This document shows positions 14,933-30,430 of a stretch of DNA of 64,000 bases, in pieces; the stretch's first letter is position 1; every line of letters begins with the position of its first letter. Made by a program: the position numbers and the translations under genes. The DNA is from an uncultured Gemmatimonadales bacterium (GTDB taxonomy: Bacteria > Gemmatimonadota > Gemmatimonadetes > Longimicrobiales > RSA9). The notes under the pieces were generated by a model. It was not told the origin of the DNA and did no database searches. It saw only the letters and a program-made list of their open reading frames with translations. The stretch spans positions 160,001 to 224,000 of the forward strand of contig CAWCRS010000003.1 in assembly GCA_963798085.1 (NCBI GenBank), in the 5' to 3' direction.

Positions 14933-15119
14933 GCAACGCAGCCGGAGTTCTGTCTCGATCCTGGCGCTCGTCGGCCCGTTGCCCGCGGCGGCCGCAACGC
15001 GGGCGTCCTGACGCGGACACGAGGCGGGCACGTCGCCCCGCATCCCCGCCGTTTTGTTGCCGCTGCAGCGGCGGTGGCGCATCTTCCGGCTCCGCTCGCA
15101 CATCACAGGGAGGTCACAC

Positions 15120-16845
15120 TTGACGCCGAAACGCATGATTCAGGCGACGATTCCGTTCATTGTTCTCGTCGCTGCCTGTCAGTCCGGTGGTGATCAGGCC
15201 GATAGCGCCGGCGCCATGGCCGGCAATGACGCCGCCATCAAGCCCGCGCTGGAGAGCATCACGTCGCAGGACATTCTCAAGCACATCCAGCGGCTGGCAT
15301 CGGACGGCTTCGAGGGCCGCGCGCCGGGCACGCGGGGCGAGGATTCCGCGGTGAACTACATCAGCTCGGAGTTCAAGCGCCTGGGGCTGAAGCCGGGCAA
15401 TCCGGATGGCACGTACATCCAGCCGGTGCCGCTCGTCGGCTTCACGGCGAAGGTGACGGCCAGCATGAATGTGAAGGGCAAGGCCATGCCATTCGCGGGA
15501 CCGGCGGACTTCGTCGCGGACACGCGGCGCGTCGTGCCCGCGGTCGACATCGACAATTCGGACGTCGTGTTCGTCGGTTACGGTGTGGATGCGCCCGAAT
15601 ACAAGTGGGACGACTACAAGGGCATGGACATGACCGGCAAGACGCTGCTGATGCTGGTCAATGATCCGCAGATCCCGGACCCGGCGGACGCGTCGAAGCT
15701 GGACACGGCGATGTTCAAGGGAAAGGCAATGACGTACTACGGGCGCTGGACCTACAAGTTCGAGGAAGCCGGCGCGAAGAAGGCCGCGGCCGTGCTGGTG
15801 ATCCACGAGACGGGACCCGCCGGGTATCCGTGGGACGTGCCGGCCAACGGCTGGGGCACGGAAGCGTTCGACATCAAGCCCGCGAATGGCAACATGGATC
15901 ATGTCGCAGTGCAGGGTTGGGTACGCGACGAATTCGTGAAGAAGCTCTTCGCCGCGTCGGGCCAGGATTTCGCGAAGCTGAAGCAGGCCGGCTCTGAGCC
16001 GTGACTTCAAGCCGGTCGCGCTGCCCGCGAAGGCGAGCTTCCACATCCGCAATGCGCTGCGCGAGGTGCAGTCACGCAATGTGATCGCGAAGCTGGAGGG
16101 GTCGGACCCGCAGCTGAAGGACCAGTACATGGTCTACACCGCGCATTGGGACCACCTCGGCCGCGACACCACGAAGAAGGGCGACCAGATCTTCAATGGC
16201 GCACTGGACAATGCGTCGGGCTCGGCTGCGCTGCTGGAGCTGGCCGAGGCCTTCACGAAGCTGAGCCCCGCGCCTCGCCGGTCGATCCTGTTTCTTTCGG
16301 TGACGGCGGAGGAGAAGGGACTGCTGGGCGCGAAGTACTACGCCGAGAATCCACTCTATCCGCTGGCAAAGACCGCGGCCGACATCAACATGGACGGCGT
16401 GAACCAGTGGGGCCGCACCAAGGACATCGTGGTGGTCGGGCTGGGCAATTCCTCGCTCGATGATGCGCTGCAGGCAGCGGCCGGCGTGCAGGAGCGCGTG
16501 CTCGCGCCCGATCCGGAATCGGAGAAGGGCTTCTTCTATCGCAGCGACCATTTCGAGTTCGCCAAGCAGGGCGTGCCCGCGCTCTACACGGACGCGGGTG
16601 TCGACTTTATCGGCAAACCCGCCGGCTGGGGCCAGCAGAAGCGTGACGAGTACACCGCCAACGACTACCACAAGGTCTCCGACGAGATCAAGCCCGACTG
16701 GGACCTCTCCGGCGCCGTCGAGGATCTCCAGCTGCTCTTCCTGGTCGGCCGCGCCGTGGCTCAAGGCGATAATATGCCGGTCTGGAAACCGGGAACGGAG
16801 TTCAAGGCGAAGCGGGATGCCATGATGGGGAAGACGGGTAGCTGA
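15120..16845 (+). CDS. M28 family metallopeptidase lipoprotein with PA domain, frameshifted at ~15990
   Basis: Lipobox [19 protein letters not shown] (PA domain), [28 protein letters not shown] and YH. The two ORFs join as [12 protein letters not shown] after removing one base. Confidence 0.88.
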
Positions 16846-17295: not shown

Positions 17296-19317
17296 ATGAC
17301 TGACCGCGACCAGGCACACGACCACCACCATCACGACGGTCACCAGACGAGTGGCCCGCATGCGGGCCACTCGCCGGCGATGTTCCGCGACCGGTTCTGG
17401 GGCTCGCTGCTGCTGACGCTGCCCACGCTGGTGTGGGCAGACATGATCCAGCGGTGGTTCCATTTCCGGGCGCCGGTGTTTCCCGGGTCTCAGTACATCC
17501 CTGCCCTGTTCGGCACGCTGGTCTTCCTGTATGGCGGCCTGGTATTCGTGCGCGGCGCAGTGGGCGAGGTGCGGGACCGGCGGCCGGGCATGATGACGCT
17601 GATCGCGCTGGCCATGGGCGTGGCCTTCAGCTTCAGCATTGCCGTAACACTCGGTTATCCGGGTACACCGATCTGGTGGGAGCTGGCCACGCTGGTAACC
17701 ATCATGCTGCTGGGCCACTGGATCGAGATGCGCTCGGTGCTGCAGGCCAGCGGGGCGCTGCGCGAGCTGGCGAAGCTGCTGCCGGACACGGCGGTGCGCC
17801 TGGCGGGCGAAACGCAGGAGGAAGTGCCAGTGTCGGCGCTGCGCGAGGGCAATGTCGTTCTGGTACGACCCGGCGCGGCGGTTCCCGCTGACGGTGAGGT
17901 GCGTTCGGGGCGGAGCAGCGTGAACGAGTCGCTGATCACAGGCGAGTCGCGGCCGGTCGAGAAGCACGAAGGCGACCGCGTCATTGCGGGCGCAGTGAAC
18001 GGCGCGGGCGCGCTGCACGTGCGGGTCACGGGCACGGGCGAGAAGACGGCGCTCGCCGGCATCATGCGACTGGTCGCACAGGCGCAGTCCTCGCGTTCGC
18101 GCGCACAGGCGCTGGCGGACCGGGCGGCGTTCCTGCTGACGATCATCGCCATCGTCTCCGGCATCGCGACGCTGGTGGTGTGGCTGCTGCTGGGCGCGGC
18201 ACCGGACTTTGCCATTCAACGGCTGGTCACCGTACTGGTGATCGCCTGCCCGCACGCGCTCGGCCTGGCGATTCCGCTGGTCATCGCGATCTCGACGACG
18301 CTGGGTGCGCGCGCCGGTCTGCTGGTGCGCGACCGTCGCGGTCTCGAGGAAGCGCGCAACCTGACGGCGGTTGTGTTCGACAAGACGGGGACCCTCACGC
18401 GTGGCGAGTTCCGCGTCGTGGACATTGCCACGACGGCCGGCACGACGGCGGATCAGGCATTGTCGCTGGCGGCCGCGCTGGAGCGGGATTCCGAGCATCC
18501 GATTGCGGCGGCCATCATGCAGAGCGCGACCGAGCGTGGGCTCATTGTTCCCGCCGCGCGTGATTTCCAGGCGATCGCGGGTCACGGCGTCCAGGCCGAA
18601 GTGGCCGGCCGAACGCTGCACGTGGGTGGGCCGGCGCTGCTCGCCCGCCTGCGCGCTGCGCCGGACGAGGCGCTGCGTGCGGCCGCCGAGCGCGCCGCTG
18701 CGCGCGGTCAGGCTGCCATCTACCTCGTCGATGATGGACAGGTGCGCGCGGTGCTGGCCGTCGCGGACGCCGTGCGCGAGGAGTCGCGCGAAGCAGTGAA
18801 CGCGCTGCATCAGGCGGGGATCCGCGTCGTCATGATGACGGGCGATGCGCGCGCCGTTGCGGATGCGGTGGGCCGCGAGCTGGGCATCGACACGGTCTTC
18901 GCGGAAGTGCTGCCCGCAGAGAAGGCGGATCGCATCAAGGAGCTGCAGCGCCAGGGCGAGACCGTGGCCATGGTCGGCGATGGCGTGAACGACGCGCCCG
19001 CGCTGCTCACGGCCAATGTGGGCATTGCGATTGGCGCGGGCACGGACGTGGCCGTGGAAGCCGGCGATGTCGTGCTCGTGCGCAGCGACCCGCGCGATGT
19101 GTCGCGCATCGTGCGGCTCAGCCGCGCCAGCTATCGCAAGATGGTGCAGAACCTGTGGTGGGCGGCCGGCTACAACATCATTGCCATCCCGCTGGCGGCG
19201 GGGATTGGCAAGCCGTGGGGCCTGGTACTCGCCCCGGCTGCCGGGGCGGTGCTCATGTCGCTGAGCACGGTGGTGGTGGCGGTGAACGCGCAGCTGCTGC
19301 GGCGGGCGGAGATCTGA
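17296..19317 (+). CDS. copB: Copper-translocating P1B-type ATPase, CPH subtype (P1B-3, CopB-like)
   Basis: His-rich N-terminus, TGES, IACPHAL, DKTGT, EHP, GDGVNDAP, YN in TM7 and MSLST in TM8. Confidence 0.9.
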   Translation: MTDRDQAHDHHHHDGHQTSGPHAGHSPAMFRDRFWGSLLLTLPTLVWADMIQRWFHFRAPVFPGSQYIPALFGTLVFLYGGLVFVRGAVGEVRDRRPGMMTLIALAMGVAFSFSIAVTLGYPGTPIWWELATLVTIMLLGHWIEMRSVLQASGALRELAKLLPDTAVRLAGETQEEVPVSALREGNVVLVRPGAAVPADGEVRSGRSSVNESLITGESRPVEKHEGDRVIAGAVNGAGALHVRVTGTGEKTALAGIMRLVAQAQSSRSRAQALADRAAFLLTIIAIVSGIATLVVWLLLGAAPDFAIQRLVTVLVIACPHALGLAIPLVIAISTTLGARAGLLVRDRRGLEEARNLTAVVFDKTGTLTRGEFRVVDIATTAGTTADQALSLAAALERDSEHPIAAAIMQSATERGLIVPAARDFQAIAGHGVQAEVAGRTLHVGGPALLARLRAAPDEALRAAAERAAARGQAAIYLVDDGQVRAVLAVADAVREESREAVNALHQAGIRVVMMTGDARAVADAVGRELGIDTVFAEVLPAEKADRIKELQRQGETVAMVGDGVNDAPALLTANVGIAIGAGTDVAVEAGDVVLVRSDPRDVSRIVRLSRASYRKMVQNLWWAAGYNIIAIPLAAGIGKPWGLVLAPAAGAVLMSLSTVVVAVNAQLLRRAEI

Positions 19318-19631: not shown

Positions 19632-21779
19632 ATGGCAACCATGACCAGGAAAAGCGTGCAGCGCTACATCGACCGCGAGCTGAGCTGGCTCGCGTTCAAT
19701 GCGCGCGTCCTGCAGGAGGCGGCGGATCCCGCCGTGCCGGCCGGCGAGCGGCTCGCATTTCTCGGCATCTGGTCCTCGAACCTCGACGAATTCTTCCGCG
19801 TGCGGGTCGCCTCGCTGCGCAGCCTGCTGCGGCTGAAGCGCAAACGGGTGGCGGAGCTGGGCCTGGATCCGGCCCGCCTGCTGGGCGAGATCCACGTCAC
19901 GGTTGCGGAACAGCAGACGCGCTTCGGGCAGATCTTTCGTAAACAGGTGTTACCGGCGCTCGCCGGGCACGGCATTGCCCTCGTGGACGAGCGGCAGCTG
20001 ACTGCGGCACAGACCGATCAGCTGCGCGCCTGGTTCGAGAGCCAGGTGCGGCCCCTGCTGGAGATCGAGATTCTGGGCGACGACGGTCCGTCACCCTTCC
20101 TGCACAATCGTCAGGTCTATCTCGTCGTCCAGCTCTGGCCGGACACCGACCCGCTGCCGGCGTCGACCAGCCCGACGTACGCCTTGGTGCGTGTGCCATC
20201 GCCACCCCTGCCGCGCTTCGTCGTGCTGGAAGGGACAGACCGCATCGCGCACCCGGTCATCTTCCTCGATGACGTGATCCGCGCGAACCTGGATGCGCTG
20301 TTTCCCGGGCAGCGTGTGCGGGGCGCGTGGGCCGTCAAGCTCACGCGCGACGCCGAGCTGTATCTGGACGACGAGTTCGCGGGTGACATCGTCGCCTCCA
20401 TCCGCAAGAGTCTGAGCAAGCGCGAGACCGGTCTGCCCAGCCGTTTCCTGTACGACATGGAGGCGCCGCACCGGCTCGTGCGCGAGCTGACCCGCCGCCT
20501 CGAGCTGCAGCAGGAAGACCTGGTGATCGGCGGGCGCTACCACAATCTGCACGACCTCTGCGACTTCCCGCGCTTCGACTTGCCGCAGCTCTCGTACTCG
20601 CCGCTGCCCGCGCTGCCGCACGCGCAGCTCGATGATGCGCCATCGCTGCTCGGGGCGATCGGCGCACGCGATCACCTGCTGCACTTCCCGTATCAGCGTT
20701 TCGACACGGTGATCCGCCTGCTCGAGGAGGCCGCGGCCGATCCGGATGTGCGGGAGATCTGGATCACGCTGTACCGTGTGGCGAAGGATTCCGCCGTCGC
20801 GGAGGCGCTGATCCACGCGGCCGAGCGTGGCAAGCGCGTGACCGCGTTCGTCGAATTGAAGGCCCGGTTCGACGAGGAGACGAATCTCGCGTGGGCCGAG
20901 CGCATGGAGCGCGCCGGTGTGCGCACACTCTACAGCCTGCCCGGCCTGAAGGTGCATGCCAAGCTTGCACTCATCGTGCGCCGCGAGGCTGGGGGCGAAC
21001 GCGCGTACGCGTATCTGGGCACCGGCAACTTCAACGAGCGCACGGCCAGGGTCTATGCGGACAGCGCATTGCTGACCGCGGACCCCGCCATCACACGCGA
21101 TGTGCGCGCCGTGTTCGCGTATCTCGCGGGTGACGTGGCTAAGCCGGAATTCAGCGAGCTGCTGGTCGCGCCGTTCCATCTGCGCAAGCGGCTCTACCGC
21201 CTGATCGAAGCGGAAGCGGAGGCCGCGCGGGCCGGCAGGCCGGCCGGCATCCTGCTGAAGCTGAACAGCCTCGAGGACGCGCGCATCATCGAGCGCCTCT
21301 ATGATGCGGCGGCCGCGGGTGTACCCATGCAGCTGATCGTGCGCGGCATCTGCTGTCTGGTGCCAGGCGAGGATGGACTGAGCGAGACGATTGCCGCGCG
21401 CAGCATTATCGACCGCTATCTCGAGCATGCGCGCGTCTTCTGCTTCGCCAATGGCGGGCAGACGCTGTGGTACCTCGCGTCCGCCGACTGGATGACGCGC
21501 AACCTGAGTCGTCGCGTCGAGGTGGCGTTTCCCGTGAAGGATCCGGCACTGCAGCGGGAACTGCGGGCGCTGGTGCAGCTGCAGCTGGCGGACAATGTGA
21601 AGGCACGCATCCTCAATGCGACCGGCGAAAACGCGTATGCGCACGCAACGGATGCGCCGCGTGTGCGTGCGCAGCCGGACACCTATCGTTATCTCCAGGC
21701 GAGAGTTCCTCCGCGGGAGCCGGTGGTGGTGACGGGTGCCGCCGCCGCGGCCGCGCAACCGGAGAGTGTTCGCACATGA
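19632..21779 (+). CDS. ppk1: Polyphosphate kinase 1
   Basis: RELSWLAFNARVL, SNLDEFF, LLHFPY, ELKARFDE, KVHAK, GTGNFN, RGICCL, RYLEHAR and SADWMTRNL. Confidence 0.97.
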   Translation: MATMTRKSVQRYIDRELSWLAFNARVLQEAADPAVPAGERLAFLGIWSSNLDEFFRVRVASLRSLLRLKRKRVAELGLDPARLLGEIHVTVAEQQTRFGQIFRKQVLPALAGHGIALVDERQLTAAQTDQLRAWFESQVRPLLEIEILGDDGPSPFLHNRQVYLVVQLWPDTDPLPASTSPTYALVRVPSPPLPRFVVLEGTDRIAHPVIFLDDVIRANLDALFPGQRVRGAWAVKLTRDAELYLDDEFAGDIVASIRKSLSKRETGLPSRFLYDMEAPHRLVRELTRRLELQQEDLVIGGRYHNLHDLCDFPRFDLPQLSYSPLPALPHAQLDDAPSLLGAIGARDHLLHFPYQRFDTVIRLLEEAAADPDVREIWITLYRVAKDSAVAEALIHAAERGKRVTAFVELKARFDEETNLAWAERMERAGVRTLYSLPGLKVHAKLALIVRREAGGERAYAYLGTGNFNERTARVYADSALLTADPAITRDVRAVFAYLAGDVAKPEFSELLVAPFHLRKRLYRLIEAEAEAARAGRPAGILLKLNSLEDARIIERLYDAAAAGVPMQLIVRGICCLVPGEDGLSETIAARSIIDRYLEHARVFCFANGGQTLWYLASADWMTRNLSRRVEVAFPVKDPALQRELRALVQLQLADNVKARILNATGENAYAHATDAPRVRAQPDTYRYLQARVPPREPVVVTGAAAAAAQPESVRT

Positions 21780-22499
21780 CACCGGACAACGACGGCGGTC
21801 AGGCCCTGTTCGGGCCCATCCGCTCCGACCTGCCTCGTTCGCTGCCGCCGCTCGGCGAATCCGCCGAGCACGAGCCGGAGCGCGAGAAGAAGAGGAAGAA
21901 GAGCAAGGACCGGGACCGGGACCGCGCCGTGCGTGAGAAGGAGAAATCATCGCGCGGCATCGAGACCATGTTCCGCAATTCCTATCGCACGCACATCGAC
22001 ATGAGCGGCCTGGCCGACAGCAAGGCCAACATCATGATCAGCATCAACGGCCTGATCACGGGCATCGTGCTGGGCTCCATCTCCACCAAGATCGACGCCA
22101 ATTCCTGGCTGCTGCATCCCCACGATCATCCTGCTTGTCGGCTGCCTGACCTCGCTGGTCTTCGCCGTAATGGCGGCCCGCCCGCGGGTAACGGCCCGGG
22201 CGCTCACGCTCGAGGACGTGCGCGCGCAGCGTGCTAACATTCTGTTCTTCGGGAATTTCGTGAACCTGCGCGAGGATGAGTTTCGTCAGGGCATGAGCGA
22301 GCTGCTGCAGAATCCCGATGCGCTGTATCTCAGCATGATGCGCGACCTGTACAGTCTGGGCCGCGTGCTGGAGCGCAAGTTCCGCTATCTGCGCTTGTCC
22401 TACAGCATCTTCATTCTCGCGCTGGGCACTGGTGTGGCGGCCTTCATCTTTGCGTTCACGGTTGTCGTGCTGGCCAAGCCCGGTGGTGTGACGCCCTGA
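21776..22499 (+). CDS. DUF5706 / Pycsar-effector-like (PycTM-type) membrane protein, frameshifted at ~22115
   Basis: ATGA overlap with the ppk1 stop. Motifs RGIETMFR...LADSKANIMISIN, AARPRV, NILFFGNF and DLYSLGRVLERKFRYLRLSY. Frame repairs to WLLIPTIILLVG by removing one base. Confidence 0.8.
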
Positions 22500-22549
22500 C
22501 CGGTGCGCCCGCAACGCTGGTGTGATGCTGCTGCGCGACGCGCCCTGGC

Positions 22550-23281
22550 TCAGGACCCCTGGCGCGCAGCGCGGCTGCGCAACAGCTCGCCCAGGCTGCG
22601 CAGCGTCATGCGCAGCTTGAAGCCGAAGATCGCGGCCCGTGAAGGCCGGGGCGGCATGGCCTCCGGCAGGCTCGCCTCGACGGCGGCCAGACCTTCCTCG
22701 TAGAACACGACAGTTTCTACATCGCCTACACCCTCGAAGCACTCCGTCCGCCGCTCGGGCGTCTGCGCATAGAAGTCGCCGAACGAGTCCCAGGCGGGCT
22801 CCGTCAGCATCAGGTACTCGTGCGCGGGCACCGTGTTCTTGAGCATGCGGTGCACGACGATCACGTCCAGCCCGAAGAGCTTCTCGAAGCGGTCGATGCG
22901 CTCCACCGCCACCTCGCCTGTGTGCACCACCTGCTTGAGGCGCAGGTTGCCCACGTTGATGCACGCATCGCACACGCACATGGGCACGGTCTGCAGCGCC
23001 GCGATCTGCTGCTTGAAGACGCGGAACAGGCGGGGCAGCTGCGCCTTCACTTCGCCGGCCACGCGCTGCACGGTGGCGGGCGTGGCGAGGGCGTAGAAGA
23101 AGACGGCATCGCCTTCCAGCTCCGCCACCTTGAGCGGTGGCCCGCTGCTGCGCACCAGGGAATCCAGCAGGCGCACGATGATCTGGCGCGCGTGACTGCT
23201 CGAGATGGCGTACAGCCGCATGAATTGCGTGAAGCCGCTGATGTCCGCCAGCACGAGCACGGCCCGCATGGTGTCACTCAT
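22550..23281 (-). CDS. DUF2652-family protein (class III nucleotidyl cyclase-like fold)
   Basis: VLADISGFT, ELEGDAVFFY, CVCDAC, LKQVVHTGE and FGLDVIVVHRMLKN. Confidence 0.8.
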   Translation of the reverse strand: MSDTMRAVLVLADISGFTQFMRLYAISSSHARQIIVRLLDSLVRSSGPPLKVAELEGDAVFFYALATPATVQRVAGEVKAQLPRLFRVFKQQIAALQTVPMCVCDACINVGNLRLKQVVHTGEVAVERIDRFEKLFGLDVIVVHRMLKNTVPAHEYLMLTEPAWDSFGDFYAQTPERRTECFEGVGDVETVVFYEEGLAAVEASLPEAMPPRPSRAAIFGFKLRMTLRSLGELLRSRAARQGS

Positions 23282-23390: not shown

Positions 23391-26300
23391 TTAACGCTGA
23401 CGGTCACCGGACATGGAGATCACCGTGACCGCCGCGCCACGCAGCTTGTCATTCAATGCCGGCAGATCGCGATCCCGCAATTCGCGGAAGCGCGTGCGTA
23501 ATTCCGCCAGCTTCTGCTTGAGCAGTGTCGCCACGTCGGCCTGTTGCGCGGTGGGTGGGAGATCCGCGCCGCCATTGGCGCCGCCTGCAAGATTGAGGAA
23601 CCGGGCATACAGCCCCATGGGTGCGCGGAACGAATCCTCGCTGCGGCCGGTGAGTGTGACATCCTCGAGCAGCGTCTCAATGGCTGTCGCTTTCTGCTCG
23701 AGATCGGACGTGGCGCGGGCCAGCGTGCCGGAGGTGGCGTCGGTGCGCTCGTGCAGGATGGCGCTCACGTCCTGCAGTTGTTTCCGCGTCCACTCGAGGC
23801 TGTTGATCATGTCGACCGTCTCGTTCACCTGCGTGCGCAAGTCGAGCACGAAACCGACCTGCGTCCTGATGTCTGCCTCGGTACCGAGAGACTTCGGATC
23901 ACGCAGCACGCGCAGCTGCTGGGTGAACTCATGGCCGGCCACGGCGAGCTTGACGTTGTACGTGCCGGGCGGCACGGCGGGTGAGGCACTGGCCCCGCCG
24001 CCACCCCAGACAACGAGCGGCCGCCAGCCATCCGCGCCCACCGTCATCCACGGGCTGCCCACCGGAGCGGTGCGCAGCCGGGGCGTGTGCGCCGCTTCGT
24101 AGCGCAGATTCCACCAGGACCGGTTCAGCCCCGCGCGACCTGCGCCGCGCAGTGTGTTGATGGTGTCTCCATTGGCGCCGAGGATGGTGATGCGCCAGTC
24201 GGCCGGCGCCTTGAGCCAGAAGTTGATGTCGGCGCCGGCGGGAGGGTTCTCGCCATTGACAGAACCGCCACCCGCCGCCACCACCGCCCGGGTTGTTGCT
24301 GACATTGCGGTAGCGGTACACCTCGCGCAGCGGGAAGAGGTGTGCGTCCGCGGCTCGTACACTCGCGTCCAGATTCCGGATGGGCGTGATGTCGTCCAGT
24401 ATGTAGAAGCCGCGGCCATACGTGCCAATGACCAGGTCGTTGTAGTGCTCCTGGATGGTGAGCCAGTGCACGGGCGCATGCGGCAGGTCGATCTGCAGCG
24501 GGAACCATGATGTGCCATCATCGAGCGAGACAAACACGCCGTTATCGGTGCCGGCGTACAGCATGCCTCGCCGCACGGGATCCTCGCGCACCACGTGCAC
24601 GAAACTGGATTGCGATTTGGGAATGCCCGCGCTGATCAGTTTCCACGTCCTGCCGTAATCCGCGGTCTTGTAGATGAGGGGGTCGAAGATGCCGTTGAAC
24701 TGGAGGTCCACCGAGATGTCGGCTGCGCCGGCGTCGAAGCGCGATGGCTCGACATTCGAGATCATGCCCGCGGCCGGAGCCATGACCGCTTTGCTCACGT
24801 TCTCCCAGTGCTGGCCGCCATCCCGCGTGAGGTTCACCTGACCATCGTAGCTGCCGGCCCAGATCAGCCCCTTCTCCTTCGGCGATTCGGCCAGTGCGGA
24901 AAGCGTGGCGCCGCTGAACGTCATCAGGTTGTCGACACTGAGTCCCCCCGAGTTCTCCTTGCGCATGGCTTCATTGCTCGTGAGGTCTGGGCTGATCACG
25001 TGAAAGCTCTGGCCGCCGTCGGTGGTCTCGTGGACCACCTGGCTGCCCACGTAGACCCGGTTGTGATCGAAGGGCGAAATCGCCACCGGGAACACCCAGT
25101 GAAAGCGGTATTTCGCATCGGCCGGCCGCCAGCCATAGACGGCATCCGGCCAGACATCGACGGTGCGCGTCTGTCCGGTTCGGAAATCCATGCGGTCGAG
25201 CTGGCCATCGTAGCAGCCGGACCAGATGATGTTGCTGTCCGCCGGATCGGGAATGGCAAAACCGTCCTCGCAACCGCCCACACCCTGCCAGAGCCCCGGC
25301 GAATGCCGCCGCCGAGGCTGTTGCTGGGACCGCGCGAGGCGCCGCCATCCTGCATGTTGCCGTACACGTTGTACGGGATCTCGTTGTCCACCCAGACGTG
25401 GTACATCTGGGCGATGGGCAGTGTCACGCGACTGTACGTCTGGCCGCGATCCATGCTGATGCTCGCGCCCCCATCATTGGCCACCATAATGCGGCGAGGA
25501 TTGAGCGGATCGATCCAGACATCGTGATTGTCGCCGCCAGCGCTCGCCTCCGTGCGCACGAAGGACTCGCCGCCATCGTAGGAAACACTCCAGGACACAC
25601 AGGGGAAGTAGAGCCGGTTGGGATCATCGGGCGCCACAGCCAGTCGCGTGTAATAGGGTGAGCGCTCCGCCAGCAGATGATCGCGATTCACCAGGCGCCA
25701 CGTTTCACCACCATCATTGGAGCGGTAGAGACTCGGCGTGCTGTCTTCCATCAGCACGTACACGCGCTGCGGGTTGCTCGGTGCAATCGCCACCGCAGTC
25801 TTGCCCACGGGCCGATTCGCGGCCGGCAGACCATTGCCGCTCAGCTTCTTCCAGGTGGTGCCGCCGTCGCGCGACACGTACGCGCCGCCGCTGGTCCCGC
25901 CGCTCTTCAGGTCCCACCACTTCACGTCGACCTGCCACAGGCCCGCGAACAGCGTGCGCGGATTGCCCGGATCCATGGCGAGATCCGCGCAGCCCGTGTT
26001 CTCATCCACGAAGAGCACACGCTCCCAGGACTGGCCGCCATTGGTGGTGCGGTAGACGCCGCGCTCCTGCTGCGGCCCGTGTGCATGACCGAGCGCGCAG
26101 GCAAACACAATGTCCGGATTGGTTGGGTGAATCACGATCCGGCCAATGCGACCGGTCTTCTCGAGACCCATCGGCCTCCACGTCTGGCCGACGTCATCCG
26201 AACGGTAAATGCCATTGCCCAGTGCGTGCGCCGGCCGGATCAGGAACGTCTCGCCCGTGCCCGCCCAGATCGTGTTCGGCTGCGACGCCGGGATGGCCAG

Positions 26301-26591
26301 TGATCCAATCGACTGCACCGGCTCATCGTCGAACATCGGGTGCCAGCTGATGCCGCCATCCACCGTCTTCCACACGCCGCCTGACGCGGCGCCCACGAAC
26401 GAGATCATGGGATCGCCCGGCACGCCCACCACGGCGATCGCGCGGTTGCCACGCGGCCCTATGAAGCGATAATGCAGCGGGTCGAACGCGGCCGGCTCGA
26501 TCTGCTGCGGTGCACCAGCCGCCGGCATGAAGGCCAGCGTGCCAAGGATGGCCAGCGTGCAGCGGAACGGCGCGGAGGTGAGCGTTCTCAT
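23391..26591 (-). CDS. Large secreted BNR/VPS10-repeat glycosyl-hydrolase-like protein, frameshifted at ~25295 and ~24272
   Basis: Signal peptide, YRFIGP, GGVWKTVDGG, many [ST]xDGG/SxDxG Asp-boxes, YGNMQD, LVIGTYGRG, GENPP and AGLNR. Three consecutive ORFs join with single-base indels. Confidence 0.85.
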
Positions 26592-26923
26592 GGTTGGTCT
26601 CCCGGGAAACAAAGGAGCGACGCGCAGAAGTAAACAGCCGCATGCAAGGTGACTGGCGGCACCGGCACGGGGCAATGGCCAGGCGAGGATCTCTTGCTGC
26701 AGCGCGCTGCTGGCACTTCGCCGCGGCAGTGTGTGCGACGATTCTCCGCTGGCCGCCTGCTGCGTGCTCGCCCTCGCTCGCTGCTCCTGCTGACCACATT
26801 ATCCCGGTCAGGAAGTGCGAGCCGCTCGATCGCCTGACGAGAAGTTCGCGAACAACATCGGCAGTGCGACGCTTCGCCGCCGCTGCTGCGGCTGGCCAGC
26901 CTGCTGAATCAGAGGAGGAGACC

Positions 26924-28894
26924 GTGATCGACTGCGCACACCGCCTGTACCGGTATCGAGCCCTTCGCCTCCTCGCTTCCGCCGGGATCACGCTCGCGCT
27001 GGCGGCCACAGCGCCACGCCGGGTCGCCGCGCAGATCACGGTGGGCCGCAATGTGCAGGTGAGCGCGGCGCGTCCGAACGACATTCATTCCGAGGTCATT
27101 CTGGCCGCTGATCCCCTGCACGCGGAGCGCCTCCTGGCCGGCGTGCACATCAGCTGGGCCGACACCGTGGGCATCAAATCGATCGCCTACGTTTCGTTCG
27201 ACGGTGGCAGGACGTGGGACGTGTCGCTCGAGCGACGTGACTCCACGATCACGGCAGATCCCGCAGTTGCCTACGGTCCGGATGGCTCGGCGTACTTCGC
27301 CACACTGGCGCGCTGGGGGTTCTACCGCTCGCGCAATGGCGGTCGCACGTGGGATCCGCCGAGCAGAGTGCCGCCCGCGTACGCCTGGGACCGCGAGTAC
27401 ATCGTCTCCGATTTCACGGACGGCAAATACCGCGGTCGCGTGTACATGAACTCGACAGTCTTCCCCGTGTGGATCTCGCCGCCGGCCGACACGACCGCGG
27501 GACGCGGGGCTGGCGCGGGCCAGCGTGAGTACGGTGTGGGCATTTTCACGTCGACGGATGGCGGCACCACGTTCAACAACCCCATCATGCGCCTCGTCGT
27601 CCGCCCCGAGGGCATCCTGGGAATGGCGAACAGCGTGGTGCTCTCGGACGGAACGCTGGTGACGTTGTACGGACACTCGAAGGGCACGCAGACCGGCCGC
27701 GGCGGGGCCGGCGTGCCGTTGCCCGCCGCGAACTACTGGCTCGAAGTCGTTACTTCAACGGATGGCGGCGAGACGCTCACGAATGCCTTCCGCATCGGCG
27801 ACTACTACATGAACCGCCCGCGCTCCGAGGGCGCCGTCATCCCGCACCTGGCCGTGGACCCGGGCTCCGCGCTGTTCAAGGACCGGCTGTACGCCGTGTG
27901 GAGCGACTTTCGCACGAACCGGCTCGAAATCCTGCTCTCCTGGTCGAGCGACAAGGGCAAGACCTGGTCCGACCCCATCACCATCAATGACGATCGCGCC
28001 GCGGCCGACCCGCTGAAGGATGGCCCGGACAACATCACGCCCACGGTCGCCGTAAATCGGGATGGCGTGGTGGCGGTCTCGTGGTACGACCGGCGCGACT
28101 TCACCAATGACATGGGCTGGAACATCCGCTTCCGCGCCTCGCTCGATGGCGGTGAGACCTGGCAGCCGAGTGTGAAAGTGACGGACAAGGCCACGGCGTT
28201 CGGCGGCAATGAAGTCTGGGTGGCCGCGGGCAACAGTCGAACTGCCGGCAACGCCGCGCGCAGCGGCGGCCGCTATGTCGGACTCTCCGCCCGGCTCAGC
28301 AACGCAGGCTTCACCTTCGCGCCCGGCCACAATGGCGCGTTCGTGGCGGACGCTAACGGCGTGTTTCACCCGATGTGGATCGATTACCGGACCGGCGTCG
28401 CGCAGGTGTTTACCGCGCCGGTGACCGTCAACGCCAGGGTCGCACTGAATGGCGGCGGTGATCTGGCGGAGCTGCACGATCTTTCGGGAACCGTAAGCCT
28501 GCAGCTGACGAAGACCAGCTACGATCGCCGCAACAACCGTCTCACGTTCCAGGCACGGCTGAAGAACACAGGCAAGAGCGACACGATCCGGGGCCCGCTC
28601 AAGGCGCGCGTGCTGAGCTTTTCCTCGGAAGTGGCGAGGACGATCGAGATCGCCAACGCGGACAATCAGCTGCGCGGTGTGGGCGCTGTCTGGGACTTCA
28701 CGCCGCTGCTTCCGAAAGGCGGGCTGCTGCCCGATTCTCTCACCGCCGCCCGCGATCTGGTGTTCCAGCTGGCGGAGTTGCAACCGTTCCGGCAGGGCAC
28801 GGAGCTCAAGCTGGGGTTCGTCAACCTCGTGGCCCGCATCCTCGGGCCGGCCGCGCCAGCCAGACGTGCTGCGGTGCCGGGTGGCGAAGACTGA
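26924..28894 (+). CDS. Secreted sialidase-like (BNR/Asp-box) protein
   Basis: GAGGAGG SD before GTG, a signal peptide, Asp-boxes SFDGGRTW, SRNGGRTW, STDGGTTF, SSDKGKTW and SLDGGETW, and VSWYDRR. Confidence 0.8.
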   Translation: MIDCAHRLYRYRALRLLASAGITLALAATAPRRVAAQITVGRNVQVSAARPNDIHSEVILAADPLHAERLLAGVHISWADTVGIKSIAYVSFDGGRTWDVSLERRDSTITADPAVAYGPDGSAYFATLARWGFYRSRNGGRTWDPPSRVPPAYAWDREYIVSDFTDGKYRGRVYMNSTVFPVWISPPADTTAGRGAGAGQREYGVGIFTSTDGGTTFNNPIMRLVVRPEGILGMANSVVLSDGTLVTLYGHSKGTQTGRGGAGVPLPAANYWLEVVTSTDGGETLTNAFRIGDYYMNRPRSEGAVIPHLAVDPGSALFKDRLYAVWSDFRTNRLEILLSWSSDKGKTWSDPITINDDRAAADPLKDGPDNITPTVAVNRDGVVAVSWYDRRDFTNDMGWNIRFRASLDGGETWQPSVKVTDKATAFGGNEVWVAAGNSRTAGNAARSGGRYVGLSARLSNAGFTFAPGHNGAFVADANGVFHPMWIDYRTGVAQVFTAPVTVNARVALNGGGDLAELHDLSGTVSLQLTKTSYDRRNNRLTFQARLKNTGKSDTIRGPLKARVLSFSSEVARTIEIANADNQLRGVGAVWDFTPLLPKGGLLPDSLTAARDLVFQLAELQPFRQGTELKLGFVNLVARILGPAAPARRAAVPGGED

Positions 28895-29814
28895 TGGATG
28901 CCGCCCGGCTCATGCGGTGCGCGTCCACCTGTGCACTGCTCGCGCTCACCACATCGCCGCGGCCGGCCCGTGCGCAGGCCACTGGCGCACACAGCGCATT
29001 GGCTGCCTACAATGTCGCCGGTAAGGACCCGGTGCAATTCGAGCTGGAGAAGCCGCTGCGCGAGATTTCCGGCCTCGCCATCAATGCACAGGGTCACATT
29101 TTCGCGCACCAGGACGAGCGCGCGCTCGTCTTCCGGCTGGATCCCGCGAACGGTCGGGTGACGGAGAGCTTCCGCGTGGGCCACAACGGCGTGAGCGGCG
29201 ATTTCGAGGGCATCGCCATTGCCGGCAGGCGCTTCTTCCTCGTGTCCAGCAATGGCACACTGCTCGAGTTCGCGGAAGGCCAGGACGACGCGTCGGTCGA
29301 GTATCAGCGCACCAACCTGGGCACGCGCTCGCAGTGCACGGAGATCGAGGGCCTCGAGTACGACGCGCGCCGCGAGGAGCTGCTGCTCGCCTGCAAGATC
29401 CCCGAGCACAAACTGCGCGACCGACTGCTCGTGCTGGCCTGGTCGCTGCGCACGAAAGCGCTGCTGCCGGAGCCGCGCTTCTCGATCCCGCTCGACGACC
29501 TGAAGGAAAAAGGCGAGCCCGCAAAGCTCAACCCGTCCGGCATCGCCATCCATCCGATCACGGGCACGATCTTCCTCGTCGCCTCGGAGCAGGGCCTCCT
29601 CGTCGAACTGGACCCCGCCGGCCACGTGCTCGGAGTCGCCGAGCTGCGCCGCAAGACCCACCCCCAGCCCGAAGGCATCACCTTTGCGCCCGACGGCACC
29701 CTGTACATCTCCGACGAAGGCCGTTCCGGCCACGGCCAGCTTTCCGTCTATCCGCCGGATCGCGCGAAACTGCCCGGCCGGGCTGGTTCGGGAGGCCGGG
29801 GGGTGCCAAACTGA
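28894..29814 (+). CDS. SdiA-regulated (YjiK-like) beta-propeller protein
   Basis: Signal peptide and repeats EISGL, DFEGI, EIEGL, PSGI and QPEGITF...LYISDEG. Confidence 0.8.
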   Translation: MDAARLMRCASTCALLALTTSPRPARAQATGAHSALAAYNVAGKDPVQFELEKPLREISGLAINAQGHIFAHQDERALVFRLDPANGRVTESFRVGHNGVSGDFEGIAIAGRRFFLVSSNGTLLEFAEGQDDASVEYQRTNLGTRSQCTEIEGLEYDARREELLLACKIPEHKLRDRLLVLAWSLRTKALLPEPRFSIPLDDLKEKGEPAKLNPSGIAIHPITGTIFLVASEQGLLVELDPAGHVLGVAELRRKTHPQPEGITFAPDGTLYISDEGRSGHGQLSVYPPDRAKLPGRAGSGGRGVPN

Positions 29815-29920: not shown

Positions 29921-30430
29921 ATGAAGAAAGTCCTGCTGCTGCGCCACGCGAAATCGAGCTGGGACGAGGAGGCGTTGCCTGATTTTCAGCGACCGCTGGC
30001 CGAGCGCGGGCGAGGGGCGGCGCAGCGCATGGGCGAGTACATGGCGTCGAAGGGCCTGGTGCCGGACGGCGTGCTGTGCTCGGGTGCGCGCCGGGCGGTG
30101 GAGACCTGGGAGCTGGTCGCGCCCGCGCTCGACAGTCCTCGCGTCCACATCGACGACAACCTCTACATGGCCTCGCCCGATGCGATCCTGGCGTGGCTGC
30201 GGCGCCTGCAGTCGGAGATGAAGGTCGTGCTGCTCATCGGACACAACCCCGGCTTCGAGGAGCTGGCCAGGCGGCTGGTGGGCGACGGCAAGAAGAAAGC
30301 GCTCAAGCAGCTGCACAGGAAATACCCGACCGGCGCGCTTGCCGTGATCCGTTTCAATGTGGCGGGCTGGCCCGACATCATGGACGCGGGCGGCTACATC
30401 GAGCGCTTCATCCGGCCGCGCGACCTGTAG
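29921..30430 (+). CDS. sixA: SixA-family phosphohistidine phosphatase
   Basis: LLRHAKSSW, DFQRPLAERG, SGARRA.ET, IGHNPG and YPTGA. Confidence 0.9.
   Translation: MKKVLLLRHAKSSWDEEALPDFQRPLAERGRGAAQRMGEYMASKGLVPDGVLCSGARRAVETWELVAPALDSPRVHIDDNLYMASPDAILAWLRRLQSEMKVVLLIGHNPGFEELARRLVGDGKKKALKQLHRKYPTGALAVIRFNVAGWPDIMDAGGYIERFIRPRDL

Follow-up and report, generated by a model that had tools for sequence, protein, structure and literature searches.

Pycsar pairs a pyrimidine cyclase, PycC, with the membrane protein PycTM, according to two accounts (PMC11224242 and PMC13069673). In Pucsar, as presented in a preprint (bioRxiv 10.64898/2026.08.12.744502), a PycTM-family protein named PucTM is paired with a cyclic GMP (cGMP) cyclase and assembles as a hexamer around a central channel; the structure there is of the apo hexamer only, with the ligand site unsolved. 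A third family, DUF2652, is proposed to be class III cyclase-like, by prediction only as regards activity, in Ramakrishnan et al. 2016 (PMC4886424). Here, we analyze a window, i.e., a whole stretch of 64,000 nucleotides from an uncultured Gemmatimonadales bacterium (assembly GCA_963798085.1, contig CAWCRS010000003.1, positions 160,001 to 224,000), in which members of two of these families follow ppk1, the gene of polyphosphate kinase 1 (PPK1). A first-pass annotation had proposed that ppk1, the PycTM-family gene and the DUF2652 gene form a nucleotide-messenger module linked to polyphosphate (polyP), serving either a housekeeping effector or an atypical defense system. Comparisons at the level of sequence tip us modestly toward a PycTM subfamily that would be a housekeeping membrane channel of a phosphate/envelope cluster, controlled by a cyclic nucleoside monophosphate (cNMP), rather than an anti-phage pore.

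The ppk1 gene (19632..21779, plus strand) encodes 715 amino acids with four PPK domains and scores 743 bits against TIGR03705 (cut-off, 466). It overlaps the gene of a PycTM/DUF5706-family membrane protein (21776..22499, plus strand) of about 240 amino acids across a frame break considered below, with bases 21776-21779, ATGA, holding both the ppk1 stop and the PycTM-gene start; in the repaired frame, the product matches PF18967 with an E value of 5.6e-31. It has a basic N-terminal tail and, by hydropathy, three hydrophobic segments at approximately residues 84-104, 106-136, and 205-239. The third gene (22550..23281, minus strand) encodes a soluble, class III cyclase-like DUF2652 protein of 243 amino acids (PF10851, E value of 1.7e-33) and converges on the PycTM gene, with the two stop codons 50 nucleotides apart. 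The first-pass annotation had identified all three genes in this way, along with the overlap, the 50-nucleotide gap and the cyclase motifs ADISGFT and EGDA, and these statements are borne out. PF18967 and PF10851 are each present in a single copy in the window's genome, and scans for sigma-70 promoters, intrinsic terminators, Rfam families and unusually stable folds in or between the three genes were negative. The nearest named relatives are Longimicrobiales.

PycTM loci were sampled by a scan of GTDB genomes that gave at least 600 stretches, of which 395 were confirmed and the best 80 used; partners were counted with profiles built from these 80 loci, in which one row, L069 (= G353), represents an unpublished genome on which no claim rests by itself. 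The partners were an Omp85 barrel (51 loci), often fused to a metallophosphoesterase; a SixA-like histidine phosphatase (36; in the window at 29921..30430, plus strand); PPK1 (35); an SdiA-regulated beta-propeller protein (33; in the window at 28894..29814, plus strand); a class III cyclase (27); a metallo-beta-lactamase (MBL) hydrolase (6); and DUF2652 (1). Among the 52 PycTM loci longer than 13 kb, 48 carried at least one of the barrel, SixA, PPK1 and SdiA genes, and 3 lacked any partner. In 37 of the 80 loci, an HD domain is fused to the N terminus of PycTM, and HD-fused members account for 6956 of 8000 scored. A PDB sequence search matched this HD part to HD proteins of an uncharacterized kind, with no useful match for the PycTM core or the N-terminal region of the barrel and none for DUF2652. 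Neither a published account of the cluster nor a publication on HD-PycTM proteins was found in the literature searched, subscription journals lying mostly outside that search.

The ppk1 gene stands immediately 5' of the PycTM gene in 18 of 81 loci (the best 80 and L009), with ATGA at seven junctions and one in-frame fusion. PPK1-PycTM fusions occur in L057 and in P0385, one of 150 representatives; since both belong to Longimicrobiaceae, they may stem from a single event. In the window's family, PycTM is found in 5 of 64 genomes and PPK1 in 39 of 64, and the PycTM carriers coincide precisely with the 5 genomes that have the close type of PPK1; the window's PPK1 is 60-67% identical to that of four PycTM-bearing relatives and, over full-length matches, 37-42% identical to that of other family members. 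These observations could also be accounted for if the PycTM protein directly anchored PPK1 and its polyP chain or acted as their export channel, with no cyclic-nucleotide role, and it is in keeping with this that the basic residues R17, K40, and K158 are invariant in the PycTM alignment. We nevertheless regard such an anchor as very improbable, as ppk1 is not nearby in 45 of 80 loci, fusions of PycTM to cyclases (55, see below) far exceed the two to PPK1, and the sequence search matched no polyP channel of solved structure. A likeness of the PycTM core to polyP channels of the VTC/DUF202 type was also considered; an ESM Atlas search without PF18967 returned only unnamed clusters at 0.80 or below and gave it no support. 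Weighing against a strict polyP role, all 12 Balneolales-type loci that were fetched lack ppk1, SixA, and SdiA, which makes the tie to polyP a common but not an obligatory one. Altogether, the coupling of ppk1 to PycTM is conserved and the tie to polyP is real, which leaves standing the tie to polyP metabolism suggested for a housekeeping effector, although not as a fixed one.

PPK1 takes part in other fusions as well. In 4 of 5 other members of the window's family that were fetched, PPK1 is fused to a CYTH domain; these fusions of about 1050-1070 amino acids come from family members lacking PycTM (L202:5452-8634, L204:4984-8196, L206:5519-8752, and L203:2542-5676), and in three of the four a barrel gene of the same kind immediately precedes the fusion. 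In Rhodothermales, PPK1 is fused to an SdiA-regulated propeller (L028:888-4055, L035, L037:654-4031, and L040). Another PycTM protein, P0370, carries a C-terminal region of about 300 amino acids that has no Pfam match and appears propeller-like by eye.

Class III cyclases are a recurrent neighbor and fusion partner of the PycTM subfamily. Guanylate_cyc genes were present in 19 of 50 long loci (those with the longest flanks among the best 80, save two), compared to 1.07 expected from genome-wide density, and the neighboring cyclases comprise at least four architectures, i.e., cyclase-TPR, membrane cyclase, cyclase-STAND, and receiver-cyclase. Single chains joining Guanylate_cyc to PycTM numbered 55 among the best 120 matches to P0259, that protein included; both Asp and the Asn/Arg residues are retained in 53-55 of the 55. 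The named chains are from Balneolaceae, with Rhodohalobacter mucosus and Balneola sp. MJW-20 as hosts, and the family (P0259 and P0401-P0454) is about 356 amino acids long. A survey of the class Rhodothermia (the class of G326) covered 251 genomes, of which 86 matched at an E value of 1e-60 and 25 with one kind of match were left out; it yielded seven cyclase-PycTM fusions. Where PycTM and cyclase-TPR genes were both present (54 genomes), the cyclase-TPR gene was directly upstream of PycTM in 30, within 20 kb in 14, and farther away in 10. In Balneolales-type loci with no fusion, the barrel gene was followed by a cyclase-TPR gene in 9 of 9, with PycTM next in 7. This run of three genes, with a barrel protein of about 1250 amino acids and without ppk1, is seen in L228, L229, L231-L233, L235, and L236. 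The fusions look like cyclase-TPR and PycTM genes that became one when the TPR part was lost.

Two observations temper a general cyclase partnership. In 31 of the 50 long loci, no cyclase lies within 8 kb, and because the genomes counted are related to one another, the cyclase counts do not represent separate events. The three fusion genes that were fetched are solitary (G757, G773, and G577; L225-L227), in line with a polyP tie that is not obligatory. In the window's genome, seven Guanylate_cyc genes are present. One of these, on contig C5 (811716-813707), is a cyclase-TPR gene of the cluster type (43%) with the D, D, N, and R residues present, and metallophosphoesterase and barrel genes lie 8 kb from it; this stretch (C5:811716-825601) is possibly the remainder of the cluster. 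The pairing of a cyclase with PycTM suggested in the first-pass annotation thus holds at the family level, through other class III cyclases that adjoin PycTM or are fused to it; DUF2652 as the conserved cognate does not.

The surroundings of the window's PycTM gene are of a housekeeping kind and not a defense island. The GC content is flat across the window, and a PADLOC search of 27 window open reading frames gave no cyclase or defense-specific match, only generic domains (transporter, AAA, OmpA/MotB, and patatin). The rate of nonsynonymous change (dN) of the PycTM core is no higher than that of PPK1 in six ortholog pairs, and a quick PycTM tree broadly tracks taxonomy. The subfamily had no match in 50,697 phage records and none in viral contigs, and among 72,556 plasmids it was found on three replicons, all of them non-mobilizable. 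Together with the conserved ppk1 coupling, the lack of an island upholds the earlier placement of the locus in a phosphate-storage context.

An atypical anti-phage system would read the same genes differently: a cyclase would trigger a PycTM pore upon infection, the cell would die, and the surroundings of ppk1 would be a stable landing place. The window's PycTM does match the PADLOC PycTM model (E value of 8e-20; the 2TM effector model matches too). Moreover, the subfamily is patchy in a manner resembling defense genes, being present in 5 of 64 genomes of the family and contributing 14 of the phylum's 301 PF18967 matches. The Pucsar preprint classes cyclase-STAND fusions as immune-related, and those adjoining PycTM in two relatives (G001 and G206) resemble its immune clade 1. 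The patchiness and the cyclase-STAND fusions weigh against a housekeeping channel. By profile, however, the cyclases are unlike those of Pycsar: the fused and adjacent enzymes match an ordinary cyclase, 3mr7, with an E value of 1e-19 and PycC only at 5e-7 to 4e-5, while the window's DUF2652 matches PycC profiles at 0.032 in one model, and four of its homologues range from none to 7e-5. The slow evolution, the absence of an island, the lack of carriage by phages or mobile plasmids, and the thousands of HD-fused members likewise speak against a toxic pore, and we find the defense alternative of the first-pass annotation improbable. Distant PF18967 matches in G008, G032, and G034 (E values of 1e-5 to 1e-14) had no cluster genes in the fetched stretches and were treated as belonging to a different subfamily.

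The DUF2652 protein itself is a secure family member, scoring 115.5 bits against PF10851 (gathering cut-off, 22.1), with matches in 76 of 76 homologues and an ESM Atlas value of 0.98. Its motifs ADISGFT and EGDA contain D13 and D58, which align in register with both metal-binding Asp residues of ten cyclase domains. Among the 76 homologues, D58, E54, K134, and H144 are retained in all, and D13 and R145 in 75. At the transition-state positions, Arg is kept (R145) and Ile takes the place of Asn, as described for DUF2652 in PMC4886424. That article predicts the "D,D / E,K / H,R" type to be a guanylyl cyclase, and the residues of the window's protein fit this predicted type. Similarity to Guanylate_cyc is otherwise weak, both by hhalign (probability of 2.9%, E value of 0.015) and by PF00211, touched weakly by 6 of 76 homologues (E values up to 0.1). 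H30 and a CxCxxC motif (residues 102-107) are retained in 75-76 of the 76 homologues and form a possible zinc site in this subfamily.

We then consider whether this protein is the partner of PycTM. DUF2652 loci were collected as 93 stretches (the best 80 of 420 metagenome loci and 13 genome loci) and 18 more from the class of G369; none of the 93 and none of the 18 carried PycTM, giving 0 of 111 overall, with only 50 of the 93 extending 800 nucleotides downstream. Conversely, among the 50 genomes of the long PycTM loci, 17 have DUF2652, which falls within the locus once (0.08 expected) and outside it in 16 of 17. In the three closest relatives that have both genes, G001, G023, and G206, the two are on separate contigs, and the closest relatives of the window's DUF2652 mostly stand beside an AhpC/TSA gene (13 loci). 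Within the window, the slot between PycTM and SdiA is filled by DUF2652 and two BNR-repeat genes, one of the Sortilin/VPS10-like kind in three pieces (23391..26675, minus strand) and one at 26594..28894 (plus strand), in a stretch unmatched at this place in the compared relatives. As a trio, ppk1, PycTM, and DUF2652 do not make up a conserved module. The convergent DUF2652 gene was likely inserted in this lineage instead of serving PycTM as its dedicated cyclase. The first-pass annotation had counted a lack of DUF2652 enrichment near this membrane family as evidence against its module, and such a lack is largely what the counts above reveal.

A local role for DUF2652 would nonetheless be conceivable if it had replaced the convergent cyclase of relatives, with its cNMP, likely cGMP, controlling PycTM. 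In G001 and G206, the slot directly after PycTM carries a convergent Guanylate_cyc-AAA_16-TPR (cyclase-STAND-TPR) gene, and in G023 and L022 an MBL hydrolase gene. In L092, DUF2652 is immediately 5' of SdiA and the barrel, a position taken by cyclase-TPR in L078, L084, and L097, and in L121 a 52%-identical DUF2652 is immediately 5' of ppk1. DUF2652 thus recurs near the cluster at low frequency, which weighs against a purely local insertion. The predicted guanylyl-type residues and the precedent, in the Pucsar preprint, of a cGMP-making cyclase with a three-helix effector also favor a local role. We still judge DUF2652 an unlikely cognate. Besides the neighborhood counts, the L092 protein is of another subtype (33% identity), the gene arrived with two BNR-repeat genes unseen here in relatives, no reported DUF2652 activity was found in the literature searched, and the window was picked on account of this very coincidence.

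The PycTM gene is interrupted in the assembly. Its first frame ends prematurely after 153 amino acids and the remainder is read in a different frame, which runs from 22116 to a stop at 22499; this 3' piece alone matches PF18967 with an E value of 1.8e-29, and one extra base at about 22115-22116 separates the two, so that reading across gives 240 amino acids. The orthologues in G001, G023, G206, and L022 are unbroken. Aligned to the orthologues of related genomes, 6 of 52 genes of this assembly, the PycTM gene included, are frameshifted, with 7 frame switches in 19,671 codons. Because of this frequency and because both halves are conserved (dN/dS of 0.20-0.63 against four orthologues, compared to 0.27-0.37 for ppk1, with no second lesion), an error of assembly is the likely cause of the break. 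As an alternative, the frameshift could be genuine and the gene a recent pseudogene of this strain, whose cluster has also lost the barrel gene. The protein collection holds the truncated product of 153 amino acids, the terminal branch of the window's PycTM in the quick tree is long (0.6), and the window lacks the Omp85-barrel gene that G001 and G023 carry between SdiA and SixA, with a gap of 106 nucleotides at that place; in addition, no read spans the break, and none of three contig sets covers 22079-22500. Set against this, 5 of 51 other orthologues are also broken, among them an M28 peptidase about 5 kb upstream (15054-16845), and dN/dS in both halves resembles that of ppk1, making recent decay a rather remote prospect. 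The M28 peptidase is split over two frames and the VPS10/BNR gene over three; additional frameshifts of this sort are to be expected when an assembly is built from long reads. Between the peptidase and ppk1 lies a heavy-metal P-type ATPase gene (17296-19317), absent at that place in G001 and G023.

If the PycTM subfamily is a housekeeping, cNMP-controlled channel, its members would assemble into a ring resembling that of hexameric PucTM. The cNMP bound by the ring would come from a class III cyclase, whether fused, adjacent or elsewhere, and HD, metallo-beta-lactamase or metallophosphoesterase domains would end the signal. The output would bear on the handling of phosphate or polyP at the envelope, with PPK1 as a frequent partner. 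In the window's genome, the likeliest source of the signal would be the C5 cyclase-TPR gene, acting from a distance. A more ambitious version, which we consider doubtful, would see in this channel a physiological sister of the Pycsar and Pucsar pore effectors, or else their source, linking cNMP to envelope polyP through interchangeable class III cyclases (cyclase-TPR, cyclase-STAND, fused, and, here, DUF2652 as the likely cGMP source); were that last link true, it would provide a first function for DUF2652. The housekeeping channel, if confirmed, would give a "defense" domain an everyday role beside a polyphosphate kinase, in a subfamily that is large, slowly evolving, and likely non-toxic; thousands of genes labeled "Pycsar system effector" are then likely not defense genes. 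The cyclase-PycTM single chains of named Balneolaceae offer a simple object for the question of nucleotide binding by PycTM.

How the locus compares with described systems can be stated protein by protein. The ppk1 product is a full-length PPK1 above the curated TIGR03705 cut-off, and it is unusual in being coupled to a membrane-protein gene, whereas most other family members have CYTH-PPK1 beside the same kind of barrel. The DUF2652 protein shares with the cyclases of PMC4886424 the Pfam match, both metal-binding Asp residues, the E/K specificity pair, the H/R residues, and a soluble, single-domain form; Table 2 of that article includes no PycTM or ppk1 neighbor, and the window's subfamily adds CxCxxC and H30. 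Closest to the PycTM protein are the HD-PycTM proteins of Bacteroidota, Ignavibacteria, and Rhodothermia, named "Pycsar system effector family protein" at NCBI, with 40-72% identity in the membrane domain, the motifs RGIETMFR, DxKANIMIS, and NLLFFGNF, and the same neighbors; unlike them, the window's protein has a basic N-terminal tail in place of the HD domain and is coupled to ppk1 by ATGA. With Pycsar and Pucsar, the locus shares the membrane family (PF18967, "pJV1-spdB3 3TM") with its three hydrophobic helices and a class III cyclase or cyclase-like gene adjoining PycTM, here and in many relatives. In contrast to those systems, the cyclase-like gene is a DUF2652, outside PycC/PucC by profile; the genes are convergent, with no conserved two-gene DUF2652-PycTM operon; the PycTM subfamily evolves slowly and is coupled or fused to PPK1, an HD hydrolase or an ordinary cyclase; and the context is chromosomal and housekeeping. 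Altogether, the locus resembles Pycsar in its parts and stands apart from it in the clade of its cyclase, its operon, and its context.

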